Assembly (NCBI GenBank): GCA_008369845.1
Contig: MRSU01000049.1
Span: 1 to 49,325 of the forward strand
Reading direction: 5' to 3'
Length of the DNA: 49,325 bases
From: Trichomonas gallinae
Taxonomy: Eukaryota
Shown here piece after piece: positions 16,201 to 46,391 of this stretch (position 1 is its first letter; every line of letters begins with the position of its first letter). A program made the position numbers and the translations under genes. The notes under the pieces are model-generated. The model worked only from the letters and a program-made list of their open reading frames with translations. It was not told where the DNA came from and searched no databases.

Positions 16201-19200
16201 GAACTGATGGTACTTTCTTGCTGGAAACAAGCGAATACAATTTCGGTCCACTTCTTGTGTCTAAAGGTGATAAAGGAAATTCAAAATCTAATCCAAACGC
16301 TCCTTCTCCTTACAGAGGCATCGCAAACATCGTGAATACTTCTCAGTTCCCAATAGAATTCACTGCTTTTGTCACAGATTTAGTCGGACATAATGGATTT
16401 AGTCTCGAAAATAATAATTTCATTGTCGAAAAAGGACAAACATATCAGTTCCCGTTCAAATTCAATGCCGCGAATGCTGAAGTCTTCAAGTCACAAATCA
16501 AACTGTTCGCGCAAGACAATCCTGAGCCATTTGCTTTCAACGTATCAGCAGAAGGCTGCCTTCCTTGCATCGAGCCATCAACGACAAACTTAGACTTCGA
16601 GAAATTATTGTTGAATCAAACGAGGACTCTCAAAGTCGAATTAAAGAACACAGGTCTTATTCCTGCCGCTTGGTCTTTCAAGAACATTCAGTCATTAGAC
16701 AAGAACTTCACATTAAATGCTACGGAAGGAATAATTAACCCAAAGTCAACATTCGTTATGACAGCAATGTTCACATCAACAAAGGCCACTGTTATCAAGA
16801 AATCATTGATTTTGGAGGTTTCTAACAAAGAGAAAACAAAAGCATTCTCTTCTTATAATATTAATTTCCAGGCAGAAGCTTTTGAAATTAACGTGGACTT
16901 CCAGTTCCCTAAGGGCATGGATTGCTTAGATTTCGGCGCTTTGAAGGTTTCTCAGCCAAAGACATTGAGCTGCCAATTAACGAACAAAGGCAAATACCAA
17001 GGAAACTTCAAAGTCCAGTTCACTAATCCTAAGATACAGCCACACTTCCAGATCACGCCAATGGAAGGCCCAATTCCTCCAGGAAAGACACCATCGAATA
17101 TTTCGTTCACTTTCATGTGCAGCAAAGTCCAGAAATTCGCGAACATGAAAGGAATCCAAATTTTGCTGAGCGATGCCACAACAGGCTCCAAGACAGACAC
17201 GCTGCCTATTTCATTCAACGCAGCAACAATGTACAGCCAGTTCAAGATCGAGCCACAGAAGAAAATCGATTTTGGTCCTGTTACTGTTTTGAACACAGAG
17301 ACAAAGCAAATTACACTGACGAATACTGGCGTTTTCCCATTCGATTTCGATATAACTCCTAAAGCAGAGAAACCACCTGAAAACGAAACAGAGAAATCAT
17401 CATCTAAAATGGGTAAAAACGCAAAGGCAGCGAAAGCTCCTCCACCTAAGAACAAAGGAAAGAAGCCGAACGAAAAAGCTTTATCCTTTGGCCAATTTTC
17501 TGTTTCTCCATCAAATGGATCTGTTGCTCCAGGTGCTTCTGTAACCATCGAAGTAGAGTTCAGTCCGCAGATTCCTGGCAATTTCACATCTGTCGCCGTT
17601 TTCAATATAACTGACGCTCCACAAAACGCTGGAAAAGTCAACTTCACTTTAACTGGCTCCAGTCACATTCCTGGCATCGAGTGCTCGCATTTCGAGAAAA
17701 TTCTTCCTGGCCTTGCTCTTGCTTTGTCATTCGACAGACCTAAAATCACAAGCACGACATTTATAGAAGACGAACAAACTTTGGTTTTCAATCCAATCGT
17801 TGTCGGAATGAAATCAAAAGTCACTGCAAAAATCATCAACACTCAGCCAATTCCTTGCACAGTTGATTTAGGCGTTAAACCAAAAGCTAAAGTATCTGGC
17901 CAGTTCCCATTCGACATCAGCGAAAAATGCATTAATCTCAGTGGAAACTCTGAGGCTTCATTCGAAATAACTTTCTCTCCGAATGGAGTAGATAAGTTTT
18001 TGGGATTATTTGAGGCAGCTGTCAAGAATGGAACAGATCCAGCAACCAAAGCTCTGAAGTTCTCAGTAGAAGGCGTAGGCTCATTGCCACAAATTTCTCC
18101 TGTCGGACTCGAAAAAACAGGAAAGAATTCAAGCCTTTACACACTAAATATGGGCAAAACACTTGTTGGATTTTCTCGACAAAAGTCGATTGTCGTCAAA
18201 AACGATGGCGTCATCACAACCAAGCTCCAGATTTCTGCCAAGCCATCACCAGACTTCGAGTTGGTTGGCATTGACGCTGGAACTACTTATTCCATTGATC
18301 CAAACAGAATCATTGATCTTCCTATTTTATTCTCTCCATCTAAGACGAGAAAATGCCAGTTCGAAGTCACTGTTAACTTGGTTGACAATCCTAAAGGCTC
18401 TTTGAACTTCGTCGTCAACGCTGAAGGCTTCAGCGAAGACATAGTTTTGGAAGGAGTTAGAGGCGAAGACGAACTGGTTATGCCTGACACTGTCGTTGGC
18501 AGACAGAACTCAATTGTTTTCACAATGAAGAATGTTTCGCCGGCGGACATACGATTCCAGTGGCAGTCTCATCCTGATTTCACATTTGCTCCTTCTGTTG
18601 GTCATCTAAGACTCGGCAAATCCAAGGATATAACGATTTCTTACTTCTCAGATAAACCAGTCAAACATGTTGGCACTAAAATCAATTGCACGTGGAACAG
18701 AATCACGATGACAAACGCAAACTCTCCTGACTGGGATGATACAATGAAAGTCGTCAAATACATCACTAAAGCACAACTCGAAGCAATGAATCCTCCTCAG
18801 GAAGAAGAGCCTCCTAAAGATGCGAAACTCAAGAACTCGAAGCGTCAATCCAATTCAAGAGGATCAGTCAGAAACTCACACGTTGACATCAAAGCTGCAA
18901 CAGCTCCTAAAGAGCCACCGAAAGAATCAAAACTCATTGATGATGGTGACACTTTCGTAAGAGTTGTCGAAGTTAAACCAGAGCCAGAACACACAATACA
19001 AACAAATATCAAGACTAATTCGATGGCTGTCAGAGTCTTCGCTATTTCAGACTCAATCAAATACACAATAGACACAACTGAAGTCAACTTCAGCCCAACA
19101 ATGATGTTCGAGACGAGATCATCGGAAGTCAAGATTACAAATCCAACAACAATCAGATTCGATTACTCATGGAGAATCGCTGAGTTTAAGTCTTTGAGAA

Positions 19201-19784
19201 GCGAATATGTTTCATCTCATGGATATCCACTCAAAGTTACTCCACACACTGGCTTCATTGAGCCAGGAGGATCTACTGTTTTCTCGATCACTTTCGCTCC
19301 AATGGAAGTCGACGATTTCACTGCGAACTTAGTTTGCGACATTCCATTCATACAGACTCCACCACCATCAGTGAGAGTCACTGGTTTGTCAAGGAGGCCT
19401 CTCTGCCACTTCAATGTACAGCTTTCAGATTATCTCACAAGAAGACATCCTGACTATACATACAAACTTCCTAATGATGTAAAAGTCATTGAAATATTTG
19501 CAAAGAAAGTTGGCGCTAAAGCTATGTACAGATTCGAAGTAATCAACCCAACTTCATCACCATACGAAGTTACTTTCTCAAGAGTTGACAACGGAGAACC
19601 TCTCTCATCCAAAGTCAACTGCGAAACACCGAACGCATTATTATCGAGTGGAAAGCGATTTTCAGCTGCTTTCTCATTCGTCCCAGATTCCCACAAGACG
19701 ATCGAGAGTCTCTGGGAATTCAAGATAGGCGGACATGATGGCGTCGTTACAATTCTAGTCGTCGGGCGCATCATGCCACAATAA
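10296..19784 (+). CDS. HYDIN: Hydin-like axonemal central-pair protein (tandem ASH/PapD-like Ig domains plus adenylate-kinase-like insert)
   Basis: Many repeats of the type '(F/L)DFG.V......L.N.G..P..F....P..G.I.P'. Central IVNGISGSGRTT P-loop-like segment, K/E-rich coiled coil, and Hydin-like C-terminal RPLCHF...SDY...INPT...LWEF. First ATG is 10296 (the ORF track starts at TTG 10242); initiator TCACT at 10265. Confidence 0.82.
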   Translation: MNEIRIEPSCITFPNTYISAVSQYTLTIYNDGNETLNLLWRRYSSKEEEKIALDKIDQTDSTERQEKVEELQYISEIFRVDLSPIEIWPHSSKQVLVKYQPELAQPYCETAYLYSEKFEERIPVQFNGLGLPPDAIFNVSAVNIGHVVLDSILDYKIVLQNVGQVDVDFNYSSDVPKTFTFSPSSGHIPIGGSMEIIATFTANFVGSFNEEFEFKIKGAIKNFPRVNFYGRVVGPSYTINTKAIAFGDVSFGFIHTKTFEIENKSDIPFDYTFVLEYNGEFSGREFAITPISETIGKYGKQTVKIEFIPTKIQKYNLKMHMNIARFGQGLVSIPISANCICPEISLSHPVVDLGNVFIGYQYTGSVTLVDNTEFPAKFEYVDINDASKLQADIEIVKHNGQIDQRSKTDFVFKFTPRQLGPLNIIQYINILGSVEKPLTFCIKAVGIGPAISLNQQQINWGSIPVLKKSTQKLILSNNGKIVANFKAMIECDQNVFTLATPKGIILPNESFTAEINAYLDDNTEFKGKLIFEFENLSPITVPLRAKGVGTAVSADIPMDTIDFGYIYANQQITKTITFTNKGRKPQEIRFTLTKPRLDTDDKNCFSFKVIPDSEVIEKNESAEFTIVMNCTRPINFSMNMQVNSSQGRQREELFSPLVKGTFVKPIVNFSSQMLEFKHLHDIQKEKEYLENTNQKTPSPALLTDEEKTLVITNNSKLPLTLNLDCPEPFSCSLNHFTLQPKESKDCVVTFSTAFKTDFSCETISKKLSITLDNLPQKFNVNLKGIIVFPNIEFNPSGTVLFGSMLKNTEQTKDIILKNPTELPATFEWELMPASNDQSVDMSKIFDIYPIRSTIPAGGTDTMHFSFFAMNDQGANINYEARAICKVEGGPEYSIPLYGGSADITYTIEPLQMNFGKKSYLTPITSSINFSNTCEVPLKFAVRVPKACKFNQISFTPCEGTLDPHQTIQLGINIITGMPISYNEQFFIQIGHFEEVRIDCEVQCFIPQLKFTLPRSCDDPTMATVNTKKISKKPSGQIPPIQDLAVVENELVYQQLQSTPLVGSVRRKRKEEHKKDYDGFILSKYDMDLGKIVFGQKREFHLKAKAISPFPITFSLNTSSLSGTGFTIETTSFNNVPPDTDIDIPVVFNIQKRTNNCLGEVEFPIPFVMSTDFALIVYIKANLVMPTINLSQQHFDFGNVVVGQTLILSLQLQNMNEVPCEYKFGEAEYTNVLQRNMSQGSISPYTANPSSGILPPSSFINVEIAFAPKQEKNFSMQFPIEIKHNTKPLYVTLKGNGIQLKIIFDPPSIKMPPMIPFSEPATTTVKLKNPTQYPIEVMANQFDLQLLIDQLEAKQMQEEKEKSKKLDESIKMTPSQENFNPLNNEEIMFTNQTISRFSICVIVNGISGSGRTTVSKAIASYLDVPVLSLKELWANLVASDNKNATDYINIIKDKISQQEFYDGFVVDGLDGLPEASETDSFLQHCLKQKNAWEEVFNNPLQVYNHNNLTASELALSYLLGALEGHYVFQVALKATNEQMNERKERQAIEDAKRQEEEAIKEKEMLFQITEEDYAKLSPEEQAEVDKKRSEHRRRLLRGILATIKDQEGEGGEGKKKSKHKHRSKKEDGEKSDAKDSSRSRSSKHHRSKKEKEDKEEPPPPPPVAEEKPKETKRKKGLQLDPLDYSIANFMFTLGSISAKIRDTPNITVIDPLAVIGMESKDILPKVVEEIPQPQTTSQETLTKDKTQSRELLKQEEEEKKEEQEEEEKKEEEIIFAPHITQVNTIVIDINNDNPENINEEARRFIPQPNGLKNRIFASQIPEQRLIMPDQQNYKRATLFQMPEHVFIQLEQTDNEKMIQWLDSRPSTVASNTGGRKSRANKNKREPSVIDDLDTSKNTPRWIIGPNAEKELTLIFEPMFVGTYNDNIIFSLTNGMADNFKLHISGECYNPEFDRNPKTMFSKVMQRLDKGTDGTFLLETSEYNFGPLLVSKGDKGNSKSNPNAPSPYRGIANIVNTSQFPIEFTAFVTDLVGHNGFSLENNNFIVEKGQTYQFPFKFNAANAEVFKSQIKLFAQDNPEPFAFNVSAEGCLPCIEPSTTNLDFEKLLLNQTRTLKVELKNTGLIPAAWSFKNIQSLDKNFTLNATEGIINPKSTFVMTAMFTSTKATVIKKSLILEVSNKEKTKAFSSYNINFQAEAFEINVDFQFPKGMDCLDFGALKVSQPKTLSCQLTNKGKYQGNFKVQFTNPKIQPHFQITPMEGPIPPGKTPSNISFTFMCSKVQKFANMKGIQILLSDATTGSKTDTLPISFNAATMYSQFKIEPQKKIDFGPVTVLNTETKQITLTNTGVFPFDFDITPKAEKPPENETEKSSSKMGKNAKAAKAPPPKNKGKKPNEKALSFGQFSVSPSNGSVAPGASVTIEVEFSPQIPGNFTSVAVFNITDAPQNAGKVNFTLTGSSHIPGIECSHFEKILPGLALALSFDRPKITSTTFIEDEQTLVFNPIVVGMKSKVTAKIINTQPIPCTVDLGVKPKAKVSGQFPFDISEKCINLSGNSEASFEITFSPNGVDKFLGLFEAAVKNGTDPATKALKFSVEGVGSLPQISPVGLEKTGKNSSLYTLNMGKTLVGFSRQKSIVVKNDGVITTKLQISAKPSPDFELVGIDAGTTYSIDPNRIIDLPILFSPSKTRKCQFEVTVNLVDNPKGSLNFVVNAEGFSEDIVLEGVRGEDELVMPDTVVGRQNSIVFTMKNVSPADIRFQWQSHPDFTFAPSVGHLRLGKSKDITISYFSDKPVKHVGTKINCTWNRITMTNANSPDWDDTMKVVKYITKAQLEAMNPPQEEEPPKDAKLKNSKRQSNSRGSVRNSHVDIKAATAPKEPPKESKLIDDGDTFVRVVEVKPEPEHTIQTNIKTNSMAVRVFAISDSIKYTIDTTEVNFSPTMMFETRSSEVKITNPTTIRFDYSWRIAEFKSLRSEYVSSHGYPLKVTPHTGFIEPGGSTVFSITFAPMEVDDFTANLVCDIPFIQTPPPSVRVTGLSRRPLCHFNVQLSDYLTRRHPDYTYKLPNDVKVIEIFAKKVGAKAMYRFEVINPTSSPYEVTFSRVDNGEPLSSKVNCETPNALLSSGKRFSAAFSFVPDSHKTIESLWEFKIGGHDGVVTILVVGRIMPQ

Positions 19785-27292: not shown

Positions 27293-29746
27293 TTAATGGA
27301 AAAGGTCGAATAAAGAAGCTGCTGTATGTAATTTTATAACTGATTCAACAGCATCCATTGAAGCTTCGTATGTTTCGTTCTTCATTTCAGGAAGTATAGC
27401 AGATGATATTTGATTCATCAGTCTCTTGCAGTTATCTTCTTCATCAGAATCTTCTGGAATTGGACATGAAACAGACGCTAACTCATTAATGATTGTTGAC
27501 AAGCACTGCATTTCATCTTCCCAGTCTATTTTAGTTGCGATGTTATATAGGAAGAGTGGCATCGCTGAATACGATGGTGTGAAGTTTGGAACTAATATAG
27601 GCATCGAGTAAACTTTGCCTTTTTCGATCGAAATCGAAAAATAATCCATCAACATCGCAGCATTGTTTTCAAGGATTTGCGTGCATTCATCGCCATCTTT
27701 GCCAATGAGTCCAACAGCTACTGCAATATCAACTGGTTTGTCAAGTCTGAATTGCGCGAAATTCTGGAATTTTTCCAAAATTTTTCTTACAAAGAAATCT
27801 TTCAAAATGCCAAACGTGTTACATATATAAAGTCCATCGCCAAATGATATAAGAAAATTCTGAAGGCCAGCGAATCCCAAGAATGTATGTTTTTGAAGAA
27901 TGTTTGTCAATGTTGATGATTGATTCTCAGAGAAATTCTGTCGCATTTGTAGAATAGTTTGAAGCTCAACATTTCTGAATGGTTTGGATATAACTGTTGG
28001 AGGAGTGAACAGTTGCTCAAGCGTCTGCATTCCTATTTCTGCCGCTGATAAAATTTTTGGTTTGTATTTTAGCTCAGAGAATAAACTCGTTCTTTTATCT
28101 GATATTGATGTTTTCTTCGGTTTTTCGATATTTAATGATTGTTTCTTCATAGACTTCGGAATCTTAGGCAGTTCAAAGTTCTCAGGAACTGGTACATCAT
28201 CATCTGAATCAGCATTAGAAGGAATTTCTGGCTTGGGAAGCGAGAAATTCTGTAATGGAATTGGTTCTCTCAAATCAATTGGCTCTGGTAAAACAGCTTG
28301 CTTTTGAACTGGTTCAGGTTCATCTGATGTTGTATTATTATTCGATGATGTTAATTTGATTTTTATTGGAGATTCTTCTTTATTATTGTTAGGTATATCA
28401 ATTTCCGTTTGTTTTGGTGGCTCTTCATCACTGTCAGACAAAAAGCTCGGCGCATTTGTTTCTGGATTATAACTTGGCGGTTTATTAATTTTTTCCTCAT
28501 CATTAATTTTAATTTCTGATGATTTTTCTGGTTTTTGTGATTGCTGTTGGCTTGGGAGATCGATTAATGGGAGCCCTAATAATTGTCTTGCCTTATCTCT
28601 TTGCGATAATTCTTGTGTTTGTTCTTGTTTTTGTGATTCATTCATTTTCGCGATGAATTTATCTATTTGTGGGCTTTGCGTTCCTTTCTGTGTTGATTTT
28701 GGTGTGTGAGTCCTCTCTTTCATTGGTAATACTGGCCTTGATCCACGACGAAGTTCCAGTGACTCTTTGATCTTCTTGTGGATCTCTTCGCCGATTTCTA
28801 TTTCACCGATGAATTTAACTGTTTTCTTTGATGGATGAACATTGACTTCCACGCATTCGACTGGCATGACAATAATCAAGAAGTAAAAAGGATTGATTCC
28901 TGAGCCAATGGATTCTGTGTATGCTGTGTCTATTTGCCTCTTGATTGTCTGGCATTGTACTAATCTTCCATTTATAAAAATCGCGTTCATCTTCTTTTTG
29001 GATGAGAAAGAAGGGGAAGACAAGAACATTGTCGCTGTTACATTCGGATATGGTGAAAAACTGAGTGTGAAAATGGATTTCGTGTCTTCGATATCGAATA
29101 ATAGCTTAAGAACATCTTCTGTTTTCGAGCTTCCGTAAGTTCTGAGTAATTCTTTTCCGTTTGACTCCAAAATAAAACTAATGTTAGGATATGTAACTGA
29201 GTATTGTGAAACAACCTCCAAAATCTTCTTTGTGTCTGATGTTGCTTTTGGTCGCGCATTAAGTCTTAATCGATTATTATAGAAAAGATCGCGTACTTCT
29301 ATATTGGTTCCTTCTGTGAATGCTATGCCTTTGAGCTCTGAAACCATTTTCCCATCCTGATATTCAGCTTGATATCCTAAAGATTCTTGATATGTTTTCG
29401 TAGTAATCGTAACATGTGCACAACAAGACATAGAAAACAATGCTTCGCCTCTAAATCCAAAAGTTCCGATTGTTCGTAAATCATTATATTTTTTGAGTTT
29501 AGATGTTGTATGTCGAGCACAAGCGAGTGACATATCGGATTTTCTGATACCTGTTCCATCATCACGTATCTGTATTAGCCCGTATCCTCCATTTTCTATC
29601 GTAATAGCGATTCGATCTGCGCAAGCGTCAATGGAATTTTCGAGTAATTCTTTTACAACGTTTGTTGGCTCAGTAATGATTTCACCAGCTGCTATCTTAT
29701 GAATAACAGAATCGTCTAATTTCACAATATAACCTGGTTCAGTCAT
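27293..29746 (-). CDS. MLH1: DNA mismatch repair protein MutL homologue MLH1
   Basis: GHKL ATPase motifs IAAGE, KELLENSIDA, DDGTGI, HTTSKL, GFRGEAL; EVNVHPSK; Mlh1-type C-terminal ML.DYFSI...P.F....AT.IDWEDE..C. First ATG at 29746. Confidence 0.93.
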   Translation of the reverse strand: MTEPGYIVKLDDSVIHKIAAGEIITEPTNVVKELLENSIDACADRIAITIENGGYGLIQIRDDGTGIRKSDMSLACARHTTSKLKKYNDLRTIGTFGFRGEALFSMSCCAHVTITTKTYQESLGYQAEYQDGKMVSELKGIAFTEGTNIEVRDLFYNNRLRLNARPKATSDTKKILEVVSQYSVTYPNISFILESNGKELLRTYGSSKTEDVLKLLFDIEDTKSIFTLSFSPYPNVTATMFLSSPSFSSKKKMNAIFINGRLVQCQTIKRQIDTAYTESIGSGINPFYFLIIVMPVECVEVNVHPSKKTVKFIGEIEIGEEIHKKIKESLELRRGSRPVLPMKERTHTPKSTQKGTQSPQIDKFIAKMNESQKQEQTQELSQRDKARQLLGLPLIDLPSQQQSQKPEKSSEIKINDEEKINKPPSYNPETNAPSFLSDSDEEPPKQTEIDIPNNNKEESPIKIKLTSSNNNTTSDEPEPVQKQAVLPEPIDLREPIPLQNFSLPKPEIPSNADSDDDVPVPENFELPKIPKSMKKQSLNIEKPKKTSISDKRTSLFSELKYKPKILSAAEIGMQTLEQLFTPPTVISKPFRNVELQTILQMRQNFSENQSSTLTNILQKHTFLGFAGLQNFLISFGDGLYICNTFGILKDFFVRKILEKFQNFAQFRLDKPVDIAVAVGLIGKDGDECTQILENNAAMLMDYFSISIEKGKVYSMPILVPNFTPSYSAMPLFLYNIATKIDWEDEMQCLSTIINELASVSCPIPEDSDEEDNCKRLMNQISSAILPEMKNETYEASMDAVESVIKLHTAASLFDLFH

Positions 29747-30257: not shown

Positions 30258-31142
30258 TTAGTATCCATAGATGCGCTTTGATCTGTGATCGCCATACGAA
30301 ACGAATCCTGGAGCAGCTGGGTCATACTCAATGCCACCATTCTTGTTGCCTACAACGAAGTGCATGGATGTTCTTGAATTTCCGCATTCAAGAATTTCTT
30401 TCTCATTACCATTGCAACCAGCATAACGGCCGCCCCATCTATATGTCCTGGCACCAGCAATTGGCTTGATTGCATCCCAGCTGAGAATATAACAATCAGC
30501 TCTCATCCAACCATTGGCAATGGCCTGGTTATATCTGGCATTGCAACCATCGATAGAGTTGACGCCACCGCACCAGCAAAGACTCATGAAACCGCAGCCC
30601 CATCTTCTGATGTTGGAATTGAATCTTGAATCTCCTTGTCTGATGACTTGACCTGGCTGTGGATGTGGCTGTGGTTGTGGGGATGGACCTGATCCACCAG
30701 TCAAAGCAACATAATCGGCGCAGACCCAGCCCTGCGGGATTCTATACCAGTTTCCGTTGATGTTTTGGATAACAATCTTTGTTCCTTGCCAGAGCCCTCC
30801 AACTATGCCATAGTTTGTGCCTGGGCCAGAACGGATATATACACCATTGGTCGTTCCAGTGATGACCGCGTTAACACGCACAAACTCGGCAAAAGCATAA
30901 CCAGATCTTCCATTAACTATAACTGACCACCAATCCCCACTTCTTCCCGTGACAGTAAATTGTGTCCTATCAGGGATGGCAGTCACTATGCTAGCAGATG
31001 TTGAAGGCTGAGAACGAATGTTAATTCCGTTATTAGATGCAACATATCCTGTTCCCTGCGCATTTGACTCCACTGGATGTCTATAAGACGTTCTTCCACG
31101 GTAGTGCCTACAGCTTGAAGCTGCAAACAATAAGCTGAGCAT
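30258..31142 (-). CDS. Secreted protein with two bacterial SH3b domains and a C-terminal papain-fold (DUF261/C39-like) domain; putative cell-wall hydrolase, copy 1
   Basis: Short hydrophobic leader MLSLLFAASSC. SH3b motifs INIRSQPSTSASIV...GDWWSV..NGRSGY and YIRSGPGTNYGIV...NWY...GWV. P/Q linker, then RQGD...WGCGFMSL...HFVVG...YDP. First ATG at 31142. Confidence 0.85.
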   Translation of the reverse strand: MLSLLFAASSCRHYRGRTSYRHPVESNAQGTGYVASNNGINIRSQPSTSASIVTAIPDRTQFTVTGRSGDWWSVIVNGRSGYAFAEFVRVNAVITGTTNGVYIRSGPGTNYGIVGGLWQGTKIVIQNINGNWYRIPQGWVCADYVALTGGSGPSPQPQPHPQPGQVIRQGDSRFNSNIRRWGCGFMSLCWCGGVNSIDGCNARYNQAIANGWMRADCYILSWDAIKPIAGARTYRWGGRYAGCNGNEKEILECGNSRTSMHFVVGNKNGGIEYDPAAPGFVSYGDHRSKRIYGY

Positions 31143-31368
31143 TTTTATAAATTTGTCATGACAAAATTCCCTGAATTTGCGCAACATTCAATTTTCTTAA
31201 TCATCTTTTATCTATTATAGCAATTATAACAAAATGCAAAGTCCATTCATTTCTGATGTTTACATATGTGGCAACTTTTTATGCAAATGATTCTCTTTAT
31301 GGAATATATACGATAACTAGTAAATTGTCAAATTTGACACTTTTGAAATCGACGTTATTTCATTAATA

Positions 31369-32101: not shown

Positions 32102-32971
32102 TTAGTATCCATAGATGCGCTTTGATCTGTGATCGCCATATGATACGAATCCATCGTAAGCTGGGTCATACTCGATGCCATTGTTCTTGTTACCAACAAC
32201 GAAGTGCATAGAAGTTCTTGCATTTCCGCATTCAAGAATTTCTTTCTCATTACCATTGCAACCAGCATAGCGACCACCGTATCTGTATGTCCTAGCGCCA
32301 GCAATTGGCTTGATTGCATCCCAGCTGAGAATGTAGCAGTCAGCTCTCATCCAACCATTGGCAATAGCCTGGTTATATCTGGCATTGCATCCATCGATAG
32401 AGTTGACACCACCGCACCAGCAAAGGCTCATGAAACCGCAGCCCCATGTTCTAATGTTGGAATTGAATCTTGAATCTCCTTGTCTGATAACTCCACCGGA
32501 TGGAGATGGTGATGGACTTGAACCACCAGATAAAGCAATGAACTGTGCACTTACCCAACCCTGTGCAATTTGATACCAATCGCCGTTAATGTTTTGAATA
32601 ACAACAGCTGTTCCATCACTGAGTCCTGTGACTCTGCCATAGTTTGTGCCTGGTCCAGAACGAACGTTTAAGCCAACTCCTGTGCCTGTAACGACACCAT
32701 TGACGCGCATATATTCAGCGAAACAGTAACCAGATCTTCCGTTAGCGTTGACGGCCCACCAGTTACCGCTTCTGCCTGTGACTGTAACCTGGGCTCTGTT
32801 TGGAAGGGAAGTAATGATGCTGGATGTTATTGATGGTCCAGAGCGAACATTAATACCAATATCTGAAGCTACGTAGCCTGTGCCCTGGGCGTTGGCTTCT
32901 GCGGAACGATACGAGTATCTGTGACCACGATAATGTCTACTTAAAGCAGAACAAACAAATAAGCTGAACAT
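32102..32971 (-). CDS. Secreted protein with two bacterial SH3b domains and a C-terminal papain-fold (DUF261/C39-like) domain; putative cell-wall hydrolase, copy 2
   Basis: Tandem paralogue of 30258-31142: INVRSGPSITSSII, LNVRSGPGTNYGRV, S/P linker, and a nearly identical C-terminal Cys/His/Asp domain. Confidence 0.85.
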   Translation of the reverse strand: MFSLFVCSALSRHYRGHRYSYRSAEANAQGTGYVASDIGINVRSGPSITSSIITSLPNRAQVTVTGRSGNWWAVNANGRSGYCFAEYMRVNGVVTGTGVGLNVRSGPGTNYGRVTGLSDGTAVVIQNINGDWYQIAQGWVSAQFIALSGGSSPSPSPSGGVIRQGDSRFNSNIRTWGCGFMSLCWCGGVNSIDGCNARYNQAIANGWMRADCYILSWDAIKPIAGARTYRYGGRYAGCNGNEKEILECGNARTSMHFVVGNKNNGIEYDPAYDGFVSYGDHRSKRIYGY

Positions 32972-35831: not shown

Positions 35832-36531
35832 TATCTTCTATGTCATATAGAAGTGATATACTATTGTATAAAATGTCATAATCGAATATATTATATTTTT
35901 CTTATATGTGATTAAGCGTGTAAATGGATGATCATTTTGAAAAAGAATATATTTTATATGTAGTTGTTGACTTGATGCTGTGTCTTTGTTGTTTTGTTTT
36001 TAATTGGTTTGATGTTGTATCAAATTTGATTTTAAAAATTGGCCGTCTAGGAATTAGAATATGACTTAACCATTGTTTTCCCAGTGTTTACACATCCTTA
36101 CACCATAACCTTAGCATTGTCAAGAAAAATGTTTTGGCAAAGAAAATAAAAATTCATCTAAAGACATGAAACCATTGAATCTATGCTTATAAAGCTGTAA
36201 CAATCATATTTATGAAGTTAACAGTCGTTTTGACTAGGTAAGGCAAATGTCGAAATAAAATCAATTTTTTCTTAATATTACTCGATGATTTAGATGTATT
36301 ATTTAATAAATAACAAGTCTTACTATTTGTTTTTCGAATTTGACGATATTTTGAAATGAGAAAAGCGATTTTTTAAAAAAATCATGATAATTTTTACTAA
36401 TGATTTATTTAATTTTTAGCAATTTAAAATAGGAATATAGCATTAATATGGGGTGAAAAAGCTAATTTTTAAATTTTTCGAAAAATCGCAAAAATTGACA
36501 GTTTTCTTCTATCGTCTATAAAACAAAAACT

Positions 36532-39500
36532 ATGTCTGACGACGAGTTTAGTGGATACTCAGACTCAGATGAGCCAAATGGCAACACTCGTCTCTCAGTA
36601 GACTTGACAGCCATCCCGCTCAACTTCACTGTTCTTGTAAATCCAAGCAAAATGAACCAAATTGGAGTCCAAAACAATTCCATCGTTTTACTGTCTAACG
36701 GTGGTAAAACCAAGGTACCAGCAATCGCATTAGCTGAACCAGGATGCGAAAGCGAAAGAATTGTTCTTCCATTTTCCATCCAACATGCATTAAATGTTGC
36801 ACAAGACAAGAAAATCTCTATTGAGTCAACATTCAACATCCCAGATGCATCAAGAGTTGAAATCGCTGTCCACACTGACCAAGTTGATCCTCAATTACAA
36901 AAAGTTTTAGGCGATTATTTCGGTTCACAGCTTTGTCCGGCCTCAGCCAAGTCTATTTTCAGACTCGATATCAACGGAAAGGGCATCTTCTGTGAAGTTA
37001 CACAAATTACGCCAGCTCCTTACGCGAAAATTACATCGAGAACACAAATCGAATGCTATCAGGCGCAGAAGACACAGTCAATCCCACGGCCATTCGATAG
37101 ACATCTCAGAGATCTCGATTTCCCAACACCAGTTACAAATCAGATCAACAAATTCATTTTGGCACCATTAGAGCGTCCAAATCTCCTCAAGAAGCTCGGC
37201 ATCGAGAAGTCTAACGGTGTTGTCGTTTTCGGAAAGAAAGGTGCAGGAAAATCTTCGGTTATCTCAGCAGTCTTACATGAATCAACAGTTCCAACATTCT
37301 ACATCAACACAGAGCTTTTGTTCACTATCGAGATTCCAAAGTCAATCGCATATCTTCAGCGCAAGTTTGCTGAAGCTATTCAAAATTCTCCTTCAGTTTT
37401 GGCTCTCGACAACGTTGAACTTCTTGCTCGCGATATCGCAACAGTCAAGAACGCACAAGAAAAGAAGCTTCTCGCTATTTTCAGGAATTGTTTCGAGAAT
37501 GCCTTAGAAAAGTCTTCTGTTTTGATTGTAGGAACAACAAGCGATCCAGCCAAATTCGATAAGGCATTACGTAAGTTAGGAGGCTTCGCATTTGCCATTG
37601 ATCTTAATTTGCCAGATGCAGAATTACGCGAGCAAATGTTCACAAGGTTCACAAGCGGTGCTAAGATCACAAAGAAGGCCCTAGGAACTGTTTCTGGAAC
37701 TCCATCTGACGGATTTACAGCTGCTCAAATCGAAAACGCCTGCAGACACGCTTTCTTCCAGCTTGCTCAGGCCAACGGATGGGCTACAGATCAAGACATG
37801 CTCAGAGCAGTCAAAGGTGGGAACTTACTCGTCAGGCATTTCCCATTCGGTCTTTCAGATCCACAGGAGGAGGAATCTCTCAATAAGCAGAAGATCCACA
37901 AGGTCAACGACGACGAGCAGTTCGCTAGAGCTCAACAGACACCACAAGACGCTCATTCAACTCATGGATTTACAGTTCAGGATACATTCTCACCAAAGAA
38001 GGAGGAAGACTTGGACAACGCATTCGGCATCAACGCTGGAGCAGATTATTCTGATCCATTCGCTGCCAAGAAGCCACAATCGACATTCACAGTCACAGTC
38101 AACCCACAAGAACCAAAGCAGCCATCAGCAGATCCATTCGGTGCTCCTCCAAAGCCATCCGGCGATGCATTCAGCTTAGAAGCAAGATTGGGTCTCTCAA
38201 ACGATCCATTTGGTGCTGCACCGGCTCCAAAGCAGCCATCAGCAGATCCATTTGGCGCACCACAAAAGCCAGCCAACGACCCATTCGGCGCTGCTCCAGC
38301 ACCAAAGCAACCATCAGCAGATCCATTCGGAGCTCCACAGCAGCCACCGGCAAACTCACAGCCATTCAACGACCCATTCGGCGCTCCACAGCAACAGATG
38401 CCTCCACAACAGCCTCCACAGCAGCAACAGCCACCGAAAGGACCGAATATGGATCAGTTCGATCCATTCGCACCAAAGACACCACAGCAGGCTCCACAGT
38501 CTCAGCCACAGCCAGTTGCAAACGATCCATTCGGCGCTCCACAACAACAGCAGCCTCCACAACAGCAACAGCCACCACAACAGCAGCCGAACCCATTTGG
38601 CCCACCACAGTCTGCCGCTGTTCCGATGTCTCAGCCACAGTCTGGACCATTCGGTCCACCACAGGCTGCACAGCAGCAGGCTACACAGAACAAGGACCCA
38701 TTCGCTCAGCAGCCACAGCCATTCCAGTCCGATCCATTTGGCGGAAAGCCAACACCGCCAGAGCCACAGCAACAGGCCCGCCAGCCAGGCTTCAACTCAG
38801 ATCCATTCGGCCAGTCGAATCAACAGCAGGAGCCATTCGGAGATCCTTTCCCACAGGGCCCATCATCACAGGCTCAGCAACAGCCACCAGCCCAGCCACA
38901 GCAGAACGATAACGACGACTACGACCCGAATGCTACTGGATTCGACATGTTCAGGAAGAAGAGCCAGATGGAAGTTTTCAAGCCAGCTAAGTCAGAGCAA
39001 CAGGATCCATTCGGTGCTCCAGCACAGCCACAAGCTGAGAAGCCACCATCCACAGAAATGTTCGCTGCCCCACCACAGCAACAACAGTCTCAGCCAGCTC
39101 CACAGCAGCCACCTCAACAACAACAGCAACCACAGCCATTCGACCAACAACCATTTGGTCAACAGGCTTTCGGCCAGCAGCAGCCACAACAACCACCACA
39201 ACAGCAGCCATTCGGTCAACAGGCTTTCGGCCAACAACAGCCACCTCAACAACAACAACCATTTGGACAACAAGCATTTGCCCAGCCACCACAGCAGCAA
39301 CAGCCACCTCAGCAACCACCTCAACAGCCACAACAACCACCACAGCAACAGCAGCCACAACAGAAGGCTCCATCAAAGGGTGGATTTGCAGAAGTGGACT
39401 TCGGCGATCCATTTGCTGGCGCCAAGTCATCACCAGCTCCAGCCCCAGCTCAACAGGCTGCTCCAGCACAGAAATCAGCTCCACAGCAAAAGCCACTCGT

Positions 39501-40866
39501 TGCTCCAAAGGGCGCTACAACCCAACAGAAGGATATGCTTGCTGGAGACAACAGTAATCCACAGAATCCATACATGGTGGCAGCCCAACTCATGCCAGTT
39601 GAACAGCCAAAGAAGGACAAGTTCGATCCATTCGGTGGACAGCCAAAGAAGGCAGACAACAATACATTTGCACCACAACAGCCAGCTCAGTCACCAAGTC
39701 CATTTGCTGCTCAATCAGCTGGCCCATTCGGCCAGAAATCTCAGACATCAGCTCCACAGCAGCAGGACGTCTTTGGACCGGCACCAACAGCCTCACCGCA
39801 ACCAGTCCAACAGACTCCAAGTACATTTGCCACACCTGGACAAAACGACATCTTCGGCGCTACACCAGCGGCACAGCCACAGCAACCACCACAACAGAAC
39901 TTCGCTCCTCAACAGCTACAGAACTTTGCTCCTCAGCAACAACAGCAGCCGCAGAACTTTGCTCCTCAACAGCCACAGCAACCACCACAGAACTTTGCTC
40001 CACAGCAACAACAGCAGCAGCCACCACAGAACTTTGCTCCACAGCAGCAGCAACAAGCGCCAGATCCATTCAGCGGACAAAATGTCATTCCACAACAAGC
40101 TCACAACGATGACCCATTCGGCGGCGCAGGAAGAAGTGCAGAGTACAACATGTTCCGCAGAGATGCACCAGCTGCACAGCCACAACAGGCACCGATGACA
40201 GCAAGTCCATTCGCCGCACCACCAGCTCAGCCAGCTGCCCAGCCACAGCCACAGAAGCCAGCTCCAGCCAAGCCAACATCAACAGGCGGCTATGCTGCAA
40301 TGGACTTCGGGGATCCATTCGGTGGCGCCAAGTCATCAACACCAAAACCAGCTCAACAGCCGCAGCAACAACCACAACAACAACAGCCACAGAACTTCAA
40401 CCAGGGTGGATTCAACCAGCCACAACAGAACAGCCCATTCGGCGGACCAAATCCAAACACACCACAAGGAATGTTCAACCAGCCTCAGGGCTACAACCAG
40501 GGCGGATTCAACCAGCCACAGCAACAATACGGATACAACCAAGGTTACAACCAAGGATATGGTGGTGGCTACAACCAGGGTTATGGAGGCTATCAACAGC
40601 CACAGCCAAGCGATCCATTCGCAGCAGCTGAACAAAACTACGGAAGACCACAGTATGGCGCTCAGCCAGGATATGGACAGGGTGGATACGGACAGCCGCA
40701 GGGTGGTTATGGTGGACATGCTCCATACGGTCAACAACAAGGTGGATATGGCGCTCCACCAGGTTATGGAGCTCCACAGCAGCTACCACAGCAACAACAG
40801 CAACAGAAGCAACCACAGCAGCCCGCAAAGAAGGATGTCTTCGCTGACTTCAACCCAATTAAGTAA
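36532..40866 (+). CDS. Cdc48/p97-derived protein: N domain, one degenerate AAA module and a long Q/P-rich DPF-repeat tail
   Basis: N-terminus aligns by eye to the p97 N domain (VLVNPSKMNQIG....IVLL...C....I). PLERPNLLKKLGI precedes Walker A GKKGAGKS; Walker B LALDN; DKALRKLGGF; LPDAELR. Low complexity after about residue 450. Confidence 0.85.
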   Translation: MSDDEFSGYSDSDEPNGNTRLSVDLTAIPLNFTVLVNPSKMNQIGVQNNSIVLLSNGGKTKVPAIALAEPGCESERIVLPFSIQHALNVAQDKKISIESTFNIPDASRVEIAVHTDQVDPQLQKVLGDYFGSQLCPASAKSIFRLDINGKGIFCEVTQITPAPYAKITSRTQIECYQAQKTQSIPRPFDRHLRDLDFPTPVTNQINKFILAPLERPNLLKKLGIEKSNGVVVFGKKGAGKSSVISAVLHESTVPTFYINTELLFTIEIPKSIAYLQRKFAEAIQNSPSVLALDNVELLARDIATVKNAQEKKLLAIFRNCFENALEKSSVLIVGTTSDPAKFDKALRKLGGFAFAIDLNLPDAELREQMFTRFTSGAKITKKALGTVSGTPSDGFTAAQIENACRHAFFQLAQANGWATDQDMLRAVKGGNLLVRHFPFGLSDPQEEESLNKQKIHKVNDDEQFARAQQTPQDAHSTHGFTVQDTFSPKKEEDLDNAFGINAGADYSDPFAAKKPQSTFTVTVNPQEPKQPSADPFGAPPKPSGDAFSLEARLGLSNDPFGAAPAPKQPSADPFGAPQKPANDPFGAAPAPKQPSADPFGAPQQPPANSQPFNDPFGAPQQQMPPQQPPQQQQPPKGPNMDQFDPFAPKTPQQAPQSQPQPVANDPFGAPQQQQPPQQQQPPQQQPNPFGPPQSAAVPMSQPQSGPFGPPQAAQQQATQNKDPFAQQPQPFQSDPFGGKPTPPEPQQQARQPGFNSDPFGQSNQQQEPFGDPFPQGPSSQAQQQPPAQPQQNDNDDYDPNATGFDMFRKKSQMEVFKPAKSEQQDPFGAPAQPQAEKPPSTEMFAAPPQQQQSQPAPQQPPQQQQQPQPFDQQPFGQQAFGQQQPQQPPQQQPFGQQAFGQQQPPQQQQPFGQQAFAQPPQQQQPPQQPPQQPQQPPQQQQPQQKAPSKGGFAEVDFGDPFAGAKSSPAPAPAQQAAPAQKSAPQQKPLVAPKGATTQQKDMLAGDNSNPQNPYMVAAQLMPVEQPKKDKFDPFGGQPKKADNNTFAPQQPAQSPSPFAAQSAGPFGQKSQTSAPQQQDVFGPAPTASPQPVQQTPSTFATPGQNDIFGATPAAQPQQPPQQNFAPQQLQNFAPQQQQQPQNFAPQQPQQPPQNFAPQQQQQQPPQNFAPQQQQQAPDPFSGQNVIPQQAHNDDPFGGAGRSAEYNMFRRDAPAAQPQQAPMTASPFAAPPAQPAAQPQPQKPAPAKPTSTGGYAAMDFGDPFGGAKSSTPKPAQQPQQQPQQQQPQNFNQGGFNQPQQNSPFGGPNPNTPQGMFNQPQGYNQGGFNQPQQQYGYNQGYNQGYGGGYNQGYGGYQQPQPSDPFAAAEQNYGRPQYGAQPGYGQGGYGQPQGGYGGHAPYGQQQGGYGAPPGYGAPQQLPQQQQQQKQPQQPAKKDVFADFNPIK
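38050..40850 (+). repeat. Coding low-complexity repeats (GATCCATTCGG = DPFG units, CAG/CAA/CCA tracts, QNFAPQ and GYNQ repeats)
   Basis: About 20 DPF-encoding units. A 75-bp-period duplication near 38200-38340. A near-identical block GGACTTCGG.GATCCATT...TGGCGCCAAGTCATCA at about 39396 and 40302. Confidence 0.9.
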
Positions 40867-41706
40867 ACAAAGCATAGCTTATCTTAACACAAATGATTCT
40901 ATTATTTTTTCATATATTCTGTCCGAGATAAATCTATAAATTGGACAGATTTTAGTGTGTTACATGTGTCAGATGGATTAGACAGTTGCTAAACCAATAA
41001 TTGTCGATATTACAGTATGGATAAAAACTTTCTCTAAATTTTAAGACTTTTATAATCTTTAATCCATACTTAATTTCTCGTAAACTATAGAAAAAGTTTA
41101 AAATTCGACTTTTGATACTAAGTTGCCAATGGTAACACTAGGTTTAGAATACAGCAAGATAATAGGAATGGATCTAGAGATGCGTTTTTTCTCTACAAAA
41201 TATTTCTTGACTGTAGATGATGCTATATTTTAAAGTTATTCATGATATAATGGCGTAAGATTGAAAATTATACGTGTTTTATAAGGAAATTTGGATATAA
41301 ACACTGTCGGAATTATAATTTAATAATGTTATTAGAAAGAATATTTCGCAATATTTGTATCAATTTATAGCGATCATTGTTGTCTGTTTGATGAAATTTT
41401 ACGATTATTTTGCATTCAATTTGATTATTTCCGGAAAACCTTGTAATTCTATTAAGTTATGAGTTGTGATAACTCCATGACCGTTGACGAATTGAGATGA
41501 ATAATTTATTGAATTATCGCAATAAAAAATATTACAGTACATAATATAATCTACAATTTTCATAATATTTCAAAATTTTATATAAAAAATTTTAAAATGA
41601 AAAATTACTAATAAATCATTTAAGTGAATAATTACTTTAAATTTCGAGTATAAAAAGTGACAATCGATCGTTGAAAACTTGACTAGGAAAAGTGCCAAAT
41701 AAAATC

Positions 41707-43511: not shown

Positions 43512-46391
43512 ATGGTTTTACCTTCTTATTTTACCATCCCATTGATAGCCTCAGTCCCAAACATGTGGATAATTCTTGCTAAATATCTATTCGAGCCGAC
43601 GTCCAAAGTCATATACATGAACTTCTCTAATCTTATCGTAATATTATTAAAACTAATATGTGAGTACTCATTTATTGCTTGCACACACTACTGGCTCTTA
43701 AACTTCTTAGTTACGAAACCAAAGAACTCAAAAGGAAAGATTTTTATCGATCTTTTATTTTACGGAATATATATTGAGATTTTCGGATTTTCTCTTTATG
43801 ATTTCGAGTTCTCCAGGAATAACTTACAGATCGCACTACCTTCTCTTTATTACGCTTATTTGGGTAGGTATAGATCATCGAGTCGTAATACATTCTCTGA
43901 GCCAATCTACAGAATACCAAATCCAGTTGGTTCCATGAAGACATCCAATTCTATTATAACAGATACAATCAAAGACTCTCCAACATTTTGGATTATCACT
44001 ATTTCAATCATGGTAGGATGGATTCTGGCACAGTTGTATCTGTTGTACAGGTATAGAGATATCATATTCAGCCATCTAAATTTGTTTTCTTACGAGGCTA
44101 GAAAAAGAGTCTTAATTTCGGATAATATCCATTTTGATTTGCTTGACAAACAGTTTCATCAGAGAAAATACAAAGATATACTATTAACAGTCATTCACAT
44201 ATTAGCTCTTGTCCATTTAATTTTCACATTTGATTTATATTTTGTCCCATCGAACCTGAAAATGACCAGATACTTAACATTACCATATTTAGATGCCATG
44301 CTTGTATCATTGTACCATTTTGAATCCAAGTTGCCCAATAGAACAAGACATGAATTGTTAAGTTTAACGAGATCTTACTTACCACCAGGCAGAATGTGGC
44401 TAGATAACAGGAAAGATCCCGTATATCCTCAAGTTCATGCAGATCCAATCACATATTGCGCATATAACAAGCAAGATCCAAAATGTGAAGGAGTTAAACC
44501 GGTTCCTGGAGAAAAGATGGTCAAACAACTCCCTAATGTTGTCTTATTGGTATACGAGAGTTTCACCCCTTCTTATTACCAAATTAATCCTGATTATATT
44601 ATTGAGCACACACACGCTTCAAAAGACGATGCAAAGAGAATATTGACCAACACAAGCTATTACCATCCGGATATAGCCCCGAATTTGCACAAATATGCAA
44701 GTTCTGGAATAACATTCAGCGGAATGTCATCATTAGGCATTCCTACAGCGTCAGGATGGCACTCATTGATGACAGGACTCGGACCTTCGCAGTCATTTAC
44801 AAATATTGTTGAAGGAGCAAAAATTCATTCAGATGATTTCCCTTCTAACCTTAGACATCGCGGCTATAGGTCATTTTTCATCAGTTCCGGCCTATTTAGC
44901 TTCGATGGAGCCAATCATTTCGTAGACAGAAAACCTGCAATTGAAGAAGCAAAGAATATCCTTCGTTGCAAGGACGGATTCGGCGATTTATACGATGAGG
45001 AGTCAATGAGACAGATGTTCCCCAAAAATGTTTATCCAAAACTAAAAGATTGTTCTGCATCAGAAGTCGAAAAACTTGCACGCGAACTTAGAAAGCAAAA
45101 ACTTGATTTACCAAAACCGTTTGATTACGCATTCTCTTACAGACCATCAGATGACAATGCCAAGCACCTAGGGATCGATCCAAAGACACTGACTGTTAAG
45201 ACATACTGGCAGTCAGATAGGATTACGTCCGCCGAAGTCATTTATCACTGGAAGCAACAACGTAATTTCTTGAATAAGAAGAACATCACGAAGCCAATCC
45301 TTGGTATACATTTGAGCATAGAAGGACACATTCCTTACAGCGAGAGAGATGATCACGGACTCTATGAAGAGACAAACAAGTTCGATCATCTTTTCGAAGG
45401 ATTTTCAGCGAGAGAAAAAACAAGAGCAAGGAACTTTATAAAAGTATCTAGAGTAACGGACAAGTACCAGATAGGATCAGTTCTGGACTGGCTAAAGAAA
45501 AATGACAACAACACGATCTTCATCATAACAGGAGACCACGGAACAAGAGACATACCTTTGCACGACGTTGAATCTAAAGTTTACGAAGATGTTGTTTTCT
45601 CAGGCGACTGCGTTCACAAATCCAGTGGATCTGACTCTTTCTTCGTTACAAGTGGCGCAATAGGTTATCTCGGTGATGATCCAGTCATCAAGCAGATGAT
45701 GCACCTCGATGAACTTGCTGGAAAGACTCTGAAAATACCAGCAGACCACAACGACTTAATCTACACAGTCGAGGAGTTGATCAGTGAACTTAATGGAACA
45801 GTGATGCCTCCAACACACAGAAGATCGAGGAACCTGATCAAGCTCACTAAAGAAATATCAGATATGCTAAAGACATCGAAACCAAAGAGGGTTTATGATC
45901 ACATAAATGAGATGAACTGGAGATCATATTCCACTGTTTCTTATATTACAGAATTCAGAGAAGGAGCAAACTTATTGAGAACGAATCCATCTGATCCTAA
46001 AGAAGCCCATCTTTACAATAATGCTAGTTATCCACTCTGCATGAAAGTAAAGGGTGAAAAAGATCAAGTTTTGGGAACAGAAGAATCTCAACAGTATTTC
46101 AAGAAGATGAAAAAGTTTATGCAAGTTGAAACATATTTGAATTACCACAACAGAATATTCAACTACGCATTTAGAGATACTTCATGCGTCGAAAAAATGA
46201 ATTGTGAGTTCCCTAAGCCAGATGAACTCAGATTCAACTACATTTTCATTTATGCACTTGCAATTCCTCCTGTTTTGATTATGCTCGCAGGTTCTCTAAT
46301 TGGAATTCTGATATCTGCATTGATGGCTGTTATTGGAATGTTCCACATTGAAAAAAGATCAATCGATGAAAATGTATTATGTGATTTATGA
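43512..46391 (+). CDS. Multi-pass membrane protein with an alkaline-phosphatase/sulfatase-fold domain (LtaS/phosphoglycerol/phosphoethanolamine transferase-like)
   Basis: About 5 N-terminal hydrophobic segments. PNVVLLVYESF (metal Glu), GIPTASGWHSLMTG (Thr nucleophile position), LRHRGYRSFF, GHIPY, NTIFIITGDHG; C-terminal TM helix. Confidence 0.82.
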   Translation: MVLPSYFTIPLIASVPNMWIILAKYLFEPTSKVIYMNFSNLIVILLKLICEYSFIACTHYWLLNFLVTKPKNSKGKIFIDLLFYGIYIEIFGFSLYDFEFSRNNLQIALPSLYYAYLGRYRSSSRNTFSEPIYRIPNPVGSMKTSNSIITDTIKDSPTFWIITISIMVGWILAQLYLLYRYRDIIFSHLNLFSYEARKRVLISDNIHFDLLDKQFHQRKYKDILLTVIHILALVHLIFTFDLYFVPSNLKMTRYLTLPYLDAMLVSLYHFESKLPNRTRHELLSLTRSYLPPGRMWLDNRKDPVYPQVHADPITYCAYNKQDPKCEGVKPVPGEKMVKQLPNVVLLVYESFTPSYYQINPDYIIEHTHASKDDAKRILTNTSYYHPDIAPNLHKYASSGITFSGMSSLGIPTASGWHSLMTGLGPSQSFTNIVEGAKIHSDDFPSNLRHRGYRSFFISSGLFSFDGANHFVDRKPAIEEAKNILRCKDGFGDLYDEESMRQMFPKNVYPKLKDCSASEVEKLARELRKQKLDLPKPFDYAFSYRPSDDNAKHLGIDPKTLTVKTYWQSDRITSAEVIYHWKQQRNFLNKKNITKPILGIHLSIEGHIPYSERDDHGLYEETNKFDHLFEGFSAREKTRARNFIKVSRVTDKYQIGSVLDWLKKNDNNTIFIITGDHGTRDIPLHDVESKVYEDVVFSGDCVHKSSGSDSFFVTSGAIGYLGDDPVIKQMMHLDELAGKTLKIPADHNDLIYTVEELISELNGTVMPPTHRRSRNLIKLTKEISDMLKTSKPKRVYDHINEMNWRSYSTVSYITEFREGANLLRTNPSDPKEAHLYNNASYPLCMKVKGEKDQVLGTEESQQYFKKMKKFMQVETYLNYHNRIFNYAFRDTSCVEKMNCEFPKPDELRFNYIFIYALAIPPVLIMLAGSLIGILISALMAVIGMFHIEKRSIDENVLCDL

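Follow-up and report, generated by a model that had tools for sequence, protein, structure and literature searches.

p97 (VCP/Cdc48; PDB 1E32, 4KO8 and 9M4N) contains an N domain, made of a double-psi barrel and the Nc subdomain, directly ahead of a first AAA module, D1, with its helical lid, and a second AAA module, D2. SPATA5/Afg2, NVL/Rix7 and archaeal VAT belong to the same classical AAA clade and have two AAA modules each. In NSF/Sec18, the D2 module serves ATP-dependent oligomerization; its Walker B motif reads DD and its sensor-1 Asn is lost. A quite different plan, a folded head followed by a long disordered tail with many DPF motifs, is shared by Eps15/Eps15R, AP180, Dab2 and epsin, and Eps15 has 14 DPFs (PMC12370899; papers are cited here by PMC number). 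Here we describe a gene at 36532–40866 (+ strand) of contig MRSU01000049.1 from Trichomonas gallinae, the whole 49,325-nucleotide stretch of which is called the window below. The predicted protein joins a p97-type N domain and a single degenerate D1-type module to a low-complexity, DPF-rich tail. With a probability of roughly 0.55, we read it as an ATP-binding, poorly hydrolyzing scaffold that would cluster clathrin-adaptor (AP-2-type) ears through this tail.

The protein has in common with p97 the colinear N domain directly ahead of D1, the N-D1 linker and D1 with its lid. It and the relatives described below differ from p97 in lacking D2, the D1-D2 linker motif, the PUB-binding C terminus and the catalytic Glu, in having a remodeled cofactor cleft and in carrying, in many cases, a long motif tail; without D2 and the catalytic set, the family falls outside Cdc48/p97 proper. 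The plan of folded head and many-DPF tail is that of Eps15, but the head is an AAA+ module, Pfam found no EH, coiled coil, UIM, ANTH or ENTH region, p97 N-D1 accounts for all of the folded part, and the tail has no DPF triad spaced by 2–3 residues. The resemblance to Eps15 is thus one of motif only, with no homology, and the protein is not an Eps15 member. NSF D2 is a plausible functional analogue; in contrast to it, the module described here comes from p97 D1 and stands alone, with no active partner ring in the chain.

A divergent family related to the N-D1 half of p97

The gene is an intronless open reading frame (ORF; P0001) of 1,444 residues with no internal stop and no need for an intron. 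A full-library search gave 10,015 matches, of which the best 150 were examined. Sixteen of these were listed with a single matched stretch, with P0120, an ordinary p97 fragment kept as a reference, and P0020 excluded from the counts. At least 14 relatives were thus found which, together with the query, make up 15 members; they are 22–28% identical to the query, 17–67% among themselves and 17–24% to the p97 reference (about 24% for the query). The closest of the matches listed was P0020, a 165-residue fragment with 51% identity, and none of the best 150 was a close orthologue of full length, for example a named Trichomonas vaginalis protein. The only named member in 15 look-ups was P0025, an "AAA ATPase" of Histomonas meleagridis. 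As far as names go, the family is therefore parabasalid, in line with the lineage restriction proposed in a first-pass annotation of the window made from the letters alone; the designation draws on this one name and on the window's own trichomonad character. Word-based homologue searches gave 0 of 7,993 candidates at E ≤1e-20 in one case, 4 of 7,996 in a second (all two-module Cdc48 at 23–25% identity) and 1 of 1,997 in a third, missing the family, and scans of metagenome contigs confirmed 0 of 130 and 0 of 150.

Residues 15–412 of the query were colinear with p97/Cdc48A (E = 9e-45), and the N domain alone (about residues 19–178; 36586–37065, +) matched the p97/Cdc48 N domain colinearly, with PDB matches from E = 3.4e-5. 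AAA families were the only Pfam matches in the protein (AAA, E = 3.5e-13), on a D1-type module with its helical lid at about residues 195–437 (37114–37842, +); CDC48_N was recovered in 5/15 members (E up to 0.01). Homology to p97 stopped at the end of p97 D1, and each of the 15 members had one AAA domain. The family profile scored p97 at 357 bits, yeast Cdc48 at 328, VAT at 286 and Afg2 at 250, and on the two halves of p97 it scored 231.6 bits for N-D1 and 127.3 for D2.

An AlphaFold model reached a predicted local distance difference test score of 91 with a 61-row alignment, which included p97-family rows, so that the model is not independent of p97 kinship. Foldseek and VIA-align placed p97 N-D1 at the top (E = 1e-35, Z = 27, about 400 residues on chain 22–460); the root-mean-square deviation of about 9 is presumably due to a different position of the N domain in the model. 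In a FastTree phylogeny of 254 AAA domains, the 15 members formed one clade with support 1.0 and a sister group that the tree did not resolve. In a quick N-D1 tree of 45 rows with long branches, they again formed one clade (Shimodaira–Hasegawa-like approximate likelihood ratio test, 100), placed on a long stem branch with eukaryotic p97 and not with prokaryote-type Cdc48; both trees were built without labelled SPATA5, NVL and PEX sequences. The profile scores and the N-D1 tree ruled out an archaeal origin.

Sequence, profile, tree and predicted fold thus agree with the first-pass annotation on a p97-type N domain followed by one AAA module, and the comparison with Cdc48 relatives that it had called for came out on the p97 side. 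Together, these comparisons indicate that the folded part is derived from p97 N-D1 and that the family is real, conserved and divergent. It is apparently undescribed: no earlier description was found in the literature searched, outside which subscription papers and supplements mostly lay, so that a mention in a proteome table is possible. An Atlas search with the whole protein returned generic AAA clusters only; the second-ranked comprised 67 actinobacterial members of about 390 residues with CDC48_N and AAA, so that bacteria may likewise have proteins with an N domain and a single AAA module, unless these members are fragments.

Transcript support, strain variation and selection

We aligned contigs from four public runs to 36000–41400; run X1 is RNA by our guess, and X4 is recorded as RNA from a bird metagenome. 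X1 covered 36544–40884 at about 96% identity, and the flanks of the gene were uncovered in all four runs. One X1 contig displayed 79 differences and no gaps over 36544–38397 and ran on to 39099, spanning N, D1 and the first DPFs, and another stopped at 40884, 18 bases beyond the stop codon; X4 covered pieces of both gene halves. The run contigs fit one transcript, which contigs as such cannot prove. The first-pass annotation had treated the ORF as one gene with no second AAA module, and both points held: the two halves lie on one X1 contig of a related strain, and none of the 758 six-frame segments of the whole window contained a second module. A split gene or a downstream D2 exon was ruled out by these two observations.

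The X1 table lists 39 of the 79 differences in 36544–37477, where its completeness was assumed from the matching density (4.2% vs 4.3%). By hand count, 19–20 of the 39 were synonymous and 19–20 non-synonymous, with the Walker A and B codons untouched, and the ratio of non-synonymous to synonymous substitution rates (dN/dS) of N-D1 against X1 was 0.28–0.31 (p < 0.001), indicating purifying selection on N-D1. This ratio and the conservation of the family ruled out a recent pseudogene. Tail length differed between strains, with variants in X1, X2 and X4. X1 contigs with loose ends at 38287 and 39193 read Q/P/DPF-type sequence and then pass into unrelated sequence, a hint that the lineage has more proteins with DPF tails.

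The catalytic Glu is lost throughout the family

The Walker A motif GKKGAGKS (37231–37254, +), the Walker B motif D293-N294 (37408–37413, +) and the arginine-finger loop ALRKLGGF (37564–37587, +) were re-located at the positions read in the first-pass annotation. The Walker A Lys (Lys240 in the query) and the Walker B Asp are present in 15/15 members. The catalytic Glu is present in none, its place being taken by Asp in 10, Asn in 4 and Gly in 1. The sensor-1 Asn, a position on which the earlier reading was silent, is Ser337 in the query (37540–37542, +) and is kept in 4/15. Lys348 and Gly351 replace the two finger arginines in the query; the first arginine is kept in 11/15 members and the second in 13/15, and both are lost only in the query and its tree neighbor P0064, so that the finger loss does not extend to the family. 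The catalytic set of the query is reduced to Lys and Asp, with Glu, Asn and both arginines gone, and the D1-D2 linker motif is found in 0/15 members. An early impression that an aromatic pore loop had been lost was dropped, since the p97 D1 reference has none either.

In human p97 N-D1, the E305Q and R359K mutants have low activity but still hydrolyze ATP and N348Q has none, while all mutants tested are hexameric and all but K251A bind nucleotide (PMC10914628). R359K is the same change as that in the first finger of the query. Removal of the linker lowers the activity of N-D1 56-fold (PMC4730245), and the pore residues Trp551 and Phe552 are located in D2 of p97 (PMC5389986). Since D2 with these residues is absent and the active site is depleted, the module is most naturally expected to bind nucleotide, with little turnover, and to thread no substrate. 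Hydrolysis is likely to be impaired family-wide, the Glu being lost in all members, which extends a proposal that the first-pass annotation had made for the query.

The same residues bear on another possibility, namely that the protein is a targeting subunit which, in a mixed ring with normal p97 or its own paralogues, or by slow hydrolysis, brings remodeling such as uncoating to coated vesicles. Arginine fingers act on the neighboring subunit and are kept at the frequencies given above, while no member retains the Glu of its own site; the fold matches all of p97 N-D1, and heteromeric rings are known, Pex1/Pex6 and SPATA5/SPATA5L1 among them. However, the low identity to the p97 reference, the long stem branch, the lack of a D2 for a double ring and the loss of both fingers in the query make such a subunit improbable.

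The cofactor cleft of the N domain is remodeled

Tyr110 and Tyr143 of p97 are key residues for UBX binding, and position 37 lies in the cofactor cleft (PMC5389986). At the level of sequence, Tyr110 is kept in 1/15 members and Tyr143 in 2/15, and the Ser/Thr37 position is Phe or Tyr in 15/15. Phe52 and Arg53, which are important for the p97 cleft, are kept in 0/15. The cleft region has instead a signature of the family's own, P-x-N-F (residues 29–32; 36616–36627, +), where the p97 reference reads D-D-N-S; its P and N are each invariant in 15/15, and its F is found in 14/15 (Y in one). The surface of the N domain is thus conserved but unlike that of p97, which argues against binding of ordinary p97 cofactors.

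These replacements count against the function suggested in the first-pass annotation, a scaffold linking ubiquitin/p97 cofactors (UBX, Ufd1-Npl4 and VIM proteins) to adaptor coats. Retention of the N domain, its good folding in the model and the purifying selection on it would be compatible with such a link, but the cleft residues have been replaced, D2 and the PUB/PUL-binding C terminus of p97 are absent, and the tail has no SHP-like motif. We consider this link very unlikely.

A motif-rich tail with a conserved end

Behind D1, a Q/P/A/G-rich tail of about 1,000 residues (37843–40863, +), with internal repeats and the length variants mentioned above, is probably disordered, judging from its composition. 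It contains 20 DPF motifs at residues 508–1363 (38053–40620, +), 18 of them followed by G or A and all at least 8 residues apart. Composition-preserving shuffles (2,000) gave a mean of 0.58 and a maximum of 4, supporting the figure of about 20 in the first-pass annotation. Of the other motifs listed there, FxDxF is enriched (4 vs 0.2 expected), but all four are FxDPF overlapping DPFs and hence not independent motifs, and the single NPF is at chance (0.58 expected; 879 of the 2,000 shuffles reach 1). [DE][VIM]F, overlooked earlier, occurs six times against 0.13 expected. Several DPFs lie in internal repeats, and an 18-residue motif, GG-aromatic-A-x-x-DFGDPF-x-GAKSS, is present in two copies (39379–39432 and 40285–40338, +), seen in the translation and as DNA repeat family D15. 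Since part of the DPF array comes from internal duplication, the shuffles overstate independence, and the family comparison is the stronger test.

In that comparison, [DN]PF was enriched in 8/15 tails, with 4–24 motifs and each count met by at most 2 of 1,000 shuffles, so that the architecture of a single AAA module and a motif-rich tail recurs among the relatives. The enriched tails have Q/P-rich, Asn-rich and Ser-rich backbones, suggesting that the motif was kept rather than the backbone. This bears on whether the tail is non-endocytic; it might act in transport, in the manner of FG repeats, or in RNA granules, or be low-complexity sequence left to drift freely on a p97 duplicate in decay. 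FG dipeptides are abundant (28 vs 5.8 expected), tail length varies between strains, and three relatives are Arg-rich with no DPF. Most FG and FA, however, follow D-P or another x-P, DPF stands on three unrelated backbones, the end of the protein is conserved at low N-D1 identity, dN/dS is about 0.3 and the ORF is intact; a non-endocytic tail is accordingly most improbable. Six relatives, mostly of one branch (P0016, P0019, P0034, P0106, P0124 and P0135), have an Arg/His/Lys patch soon after D1 and NPF-biased or motif-less tails, possibly representing a membrane-binding or nuclear subfamily.

The protein ends in DVFADFNPI (40834–40860, +), the first six residues of which had been picked out in the first-pass annotation. 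This terminal motif has the form D-hydrophobic-F-x-x-[FYL]-[DN]-P-hydrophobic and, written as D-[VILM]-F-x-x-[FYL]-[DN]-P-[ILF], it ends 5/15 members, its start always lying within the last 14 residues. It is shared at 23–28% N-D1 identity, and among 180 fetched proteins the pattern, which was derived from the same five members, was confined to them and to the proteins clustered with them. In the Histomonas member the end is shorter and reads DFADFF.

The FCHO muHD needs DPF triads spaced by 2–3 residues, whereas for AP-2 alpha ears single DPFs suffice, through avidity (PMC4921775). Gaps of ≤4 residues between DPFs made up 0 of 19 in the query and 0 of 67 in eight members, ruling out an FCHO-type closely spaced triad. 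Canonical clathrin-box, psi-G-[PDE]-psi gamma-ear and SHP patterns had 0 matches in the tail.

EH proteins might instead be the main readers of the tail, which as a general Phe-sticker region would form an Eps15/Ede1-like condensate at trafficking sites, with AP ears as minor partners. EH domains take DPF and other Phe motifs (PMC12370899). The tail has 33 xPF and a Phe every 12 residues (median), P0106, P0124 and P0019 favor NPF (10, 5 and 3, respectively), and an insertion in X1 reads NPF where a similar unit of the window reads DPF. Windowed composition also revealed a G/Y/Q-rich, prion-like segment toward the end (about residues 1316–1420; 40477–40791, +), and a similar G/Q/Y-rich stretch lies near the end of P0009. 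Conversely, DPF outnumbers NPF 20 to 1 in the query, 27 of its 41 tail Asp residues stand two positions ahead of a Phe, and the conservation of the terminal motif speaks for a specific partner. We therefore regard reading mainly by EH proteins as unlikely.

Genomic setting

The rest of the window carries intronless genes for a proteasome subunit, DIM1, MLH1, Myb proteins and a BEACH protein, separated by A+T-rich spacers. The pattern [TA]CA[CT][TA], which we take to be initiator-like, lies within 40 bases upstream of 9 of the 17 start codons tested and not upstream of the start at 36532. A TGACA/TGTCA word stands within 40 bases upstream of the starts at 36532, 26297, 23147, 47319 and 49008 and is a possible core-promoter element.

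Tandem paralogues at 30258–31187 and 32102–32971 (−) each have two bacterial SH3_3 domains and DUF261, a bacterial-type architecture for which lateral transfer is possible and which perhaps binds cell walls. A 3,162-residue ORF at 10296–19784 (+) contains many HYDIN/CFAP65/ASH Ig-like domains, with a strongly A-skewed stretch near 15–16 kb. A sulfatase-domain protein of 959 residues with a long N-terminal part is encoded at 43512–46391 (+). The MLH1 homologue (27293–29746, −; 817 residues) has about 260 residues with no Pfam match between its repair and C-terminal domains.

Discussion

We propose that, after a duplication of p97, one copy lost D2 and that its remaining N-D1 part serves as an assembly module which binds nucleotide; substrate threading would be impossible for it, since the D2 motor is gone. 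N-D1 may self-associate in the manner of p97, gathering up to six tails with 120 DPFs and thereby doing the job of the coiled coil in Eps15; this step is weaker for the query, in which both arginine fingers are lost. The single, widely spaced DPFs would bind alpha-ears weakly but many times over, with self-association multiplying the avidity; such multivalent weak binding is likely by analogy with Eps15-type tails. D-hydrophobic-F motifs could bind clathrin weakly, and the terminal motif may bind one dedicated partner, perhaps a gamma-type ear. The remodeled N domain would bind a lineage-specific partner or membrane factor rather than UBX/VIM cofactors.

Several observations weigh against this scaffold. 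Asp in place of Glu, as in 10/15 members, need not abolish hydrolysis, as seen in DnaA-type modules; in p97, single mutants retain slow hydrolysis, N348Q excepted, and the double finger loss in the query and P0064 weakens the argument for a ring. Seven of the 15 members have one [DN]PF (four members) or none (three), and P0016, P0034 and P0135 have Arg/His-rich tails with no DPF. The role of N-D1 thus does not always depend on the motif array, and some of the short, motif-poor members may be truncated predictions. DPF is also promiscuous, being bound by EH domains (PMC12370899) and by the clathrin terminal domain (PMC11246429) as well, and since several domain types read it, the partner is not deducible from the motif alone.

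More broadly, and at somewhat less than even odds, parabasalids may have turned a p97 duplicate into an ancient family of coat scaffolds, in which about a hundred motifs for adaptor binding are borne by an AAA+ ring that binds ATP but hydrolyzes very little of it, either replacing Eps15-type pioneers or docking real p97 on coats. T. vaginalis has an expanded set of AP complexes (PMC10952624). Endocytosis in trichomonads, with their expanded adaptor complexes, has been little studied, and the family would supply a named candidate for its machinery. The sole database label encountered for the family, "AAA ATPase", means that orthologue searches for known endocytic proteins would miss it. The terminal motif and the remodeled N-domain cleft are two baits for lineage-specific coat partners. 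Few eukaryotic proteins are as conserved as p97, and a long-lived, diversified family of its N-D1 half with the Glu uniformly lost was unexpected; it offers a natural test of N-D1 function without D2. We know of no other AAA+-based endocytic accessory protein, and, if the scaffold reading is true, this would be the first.

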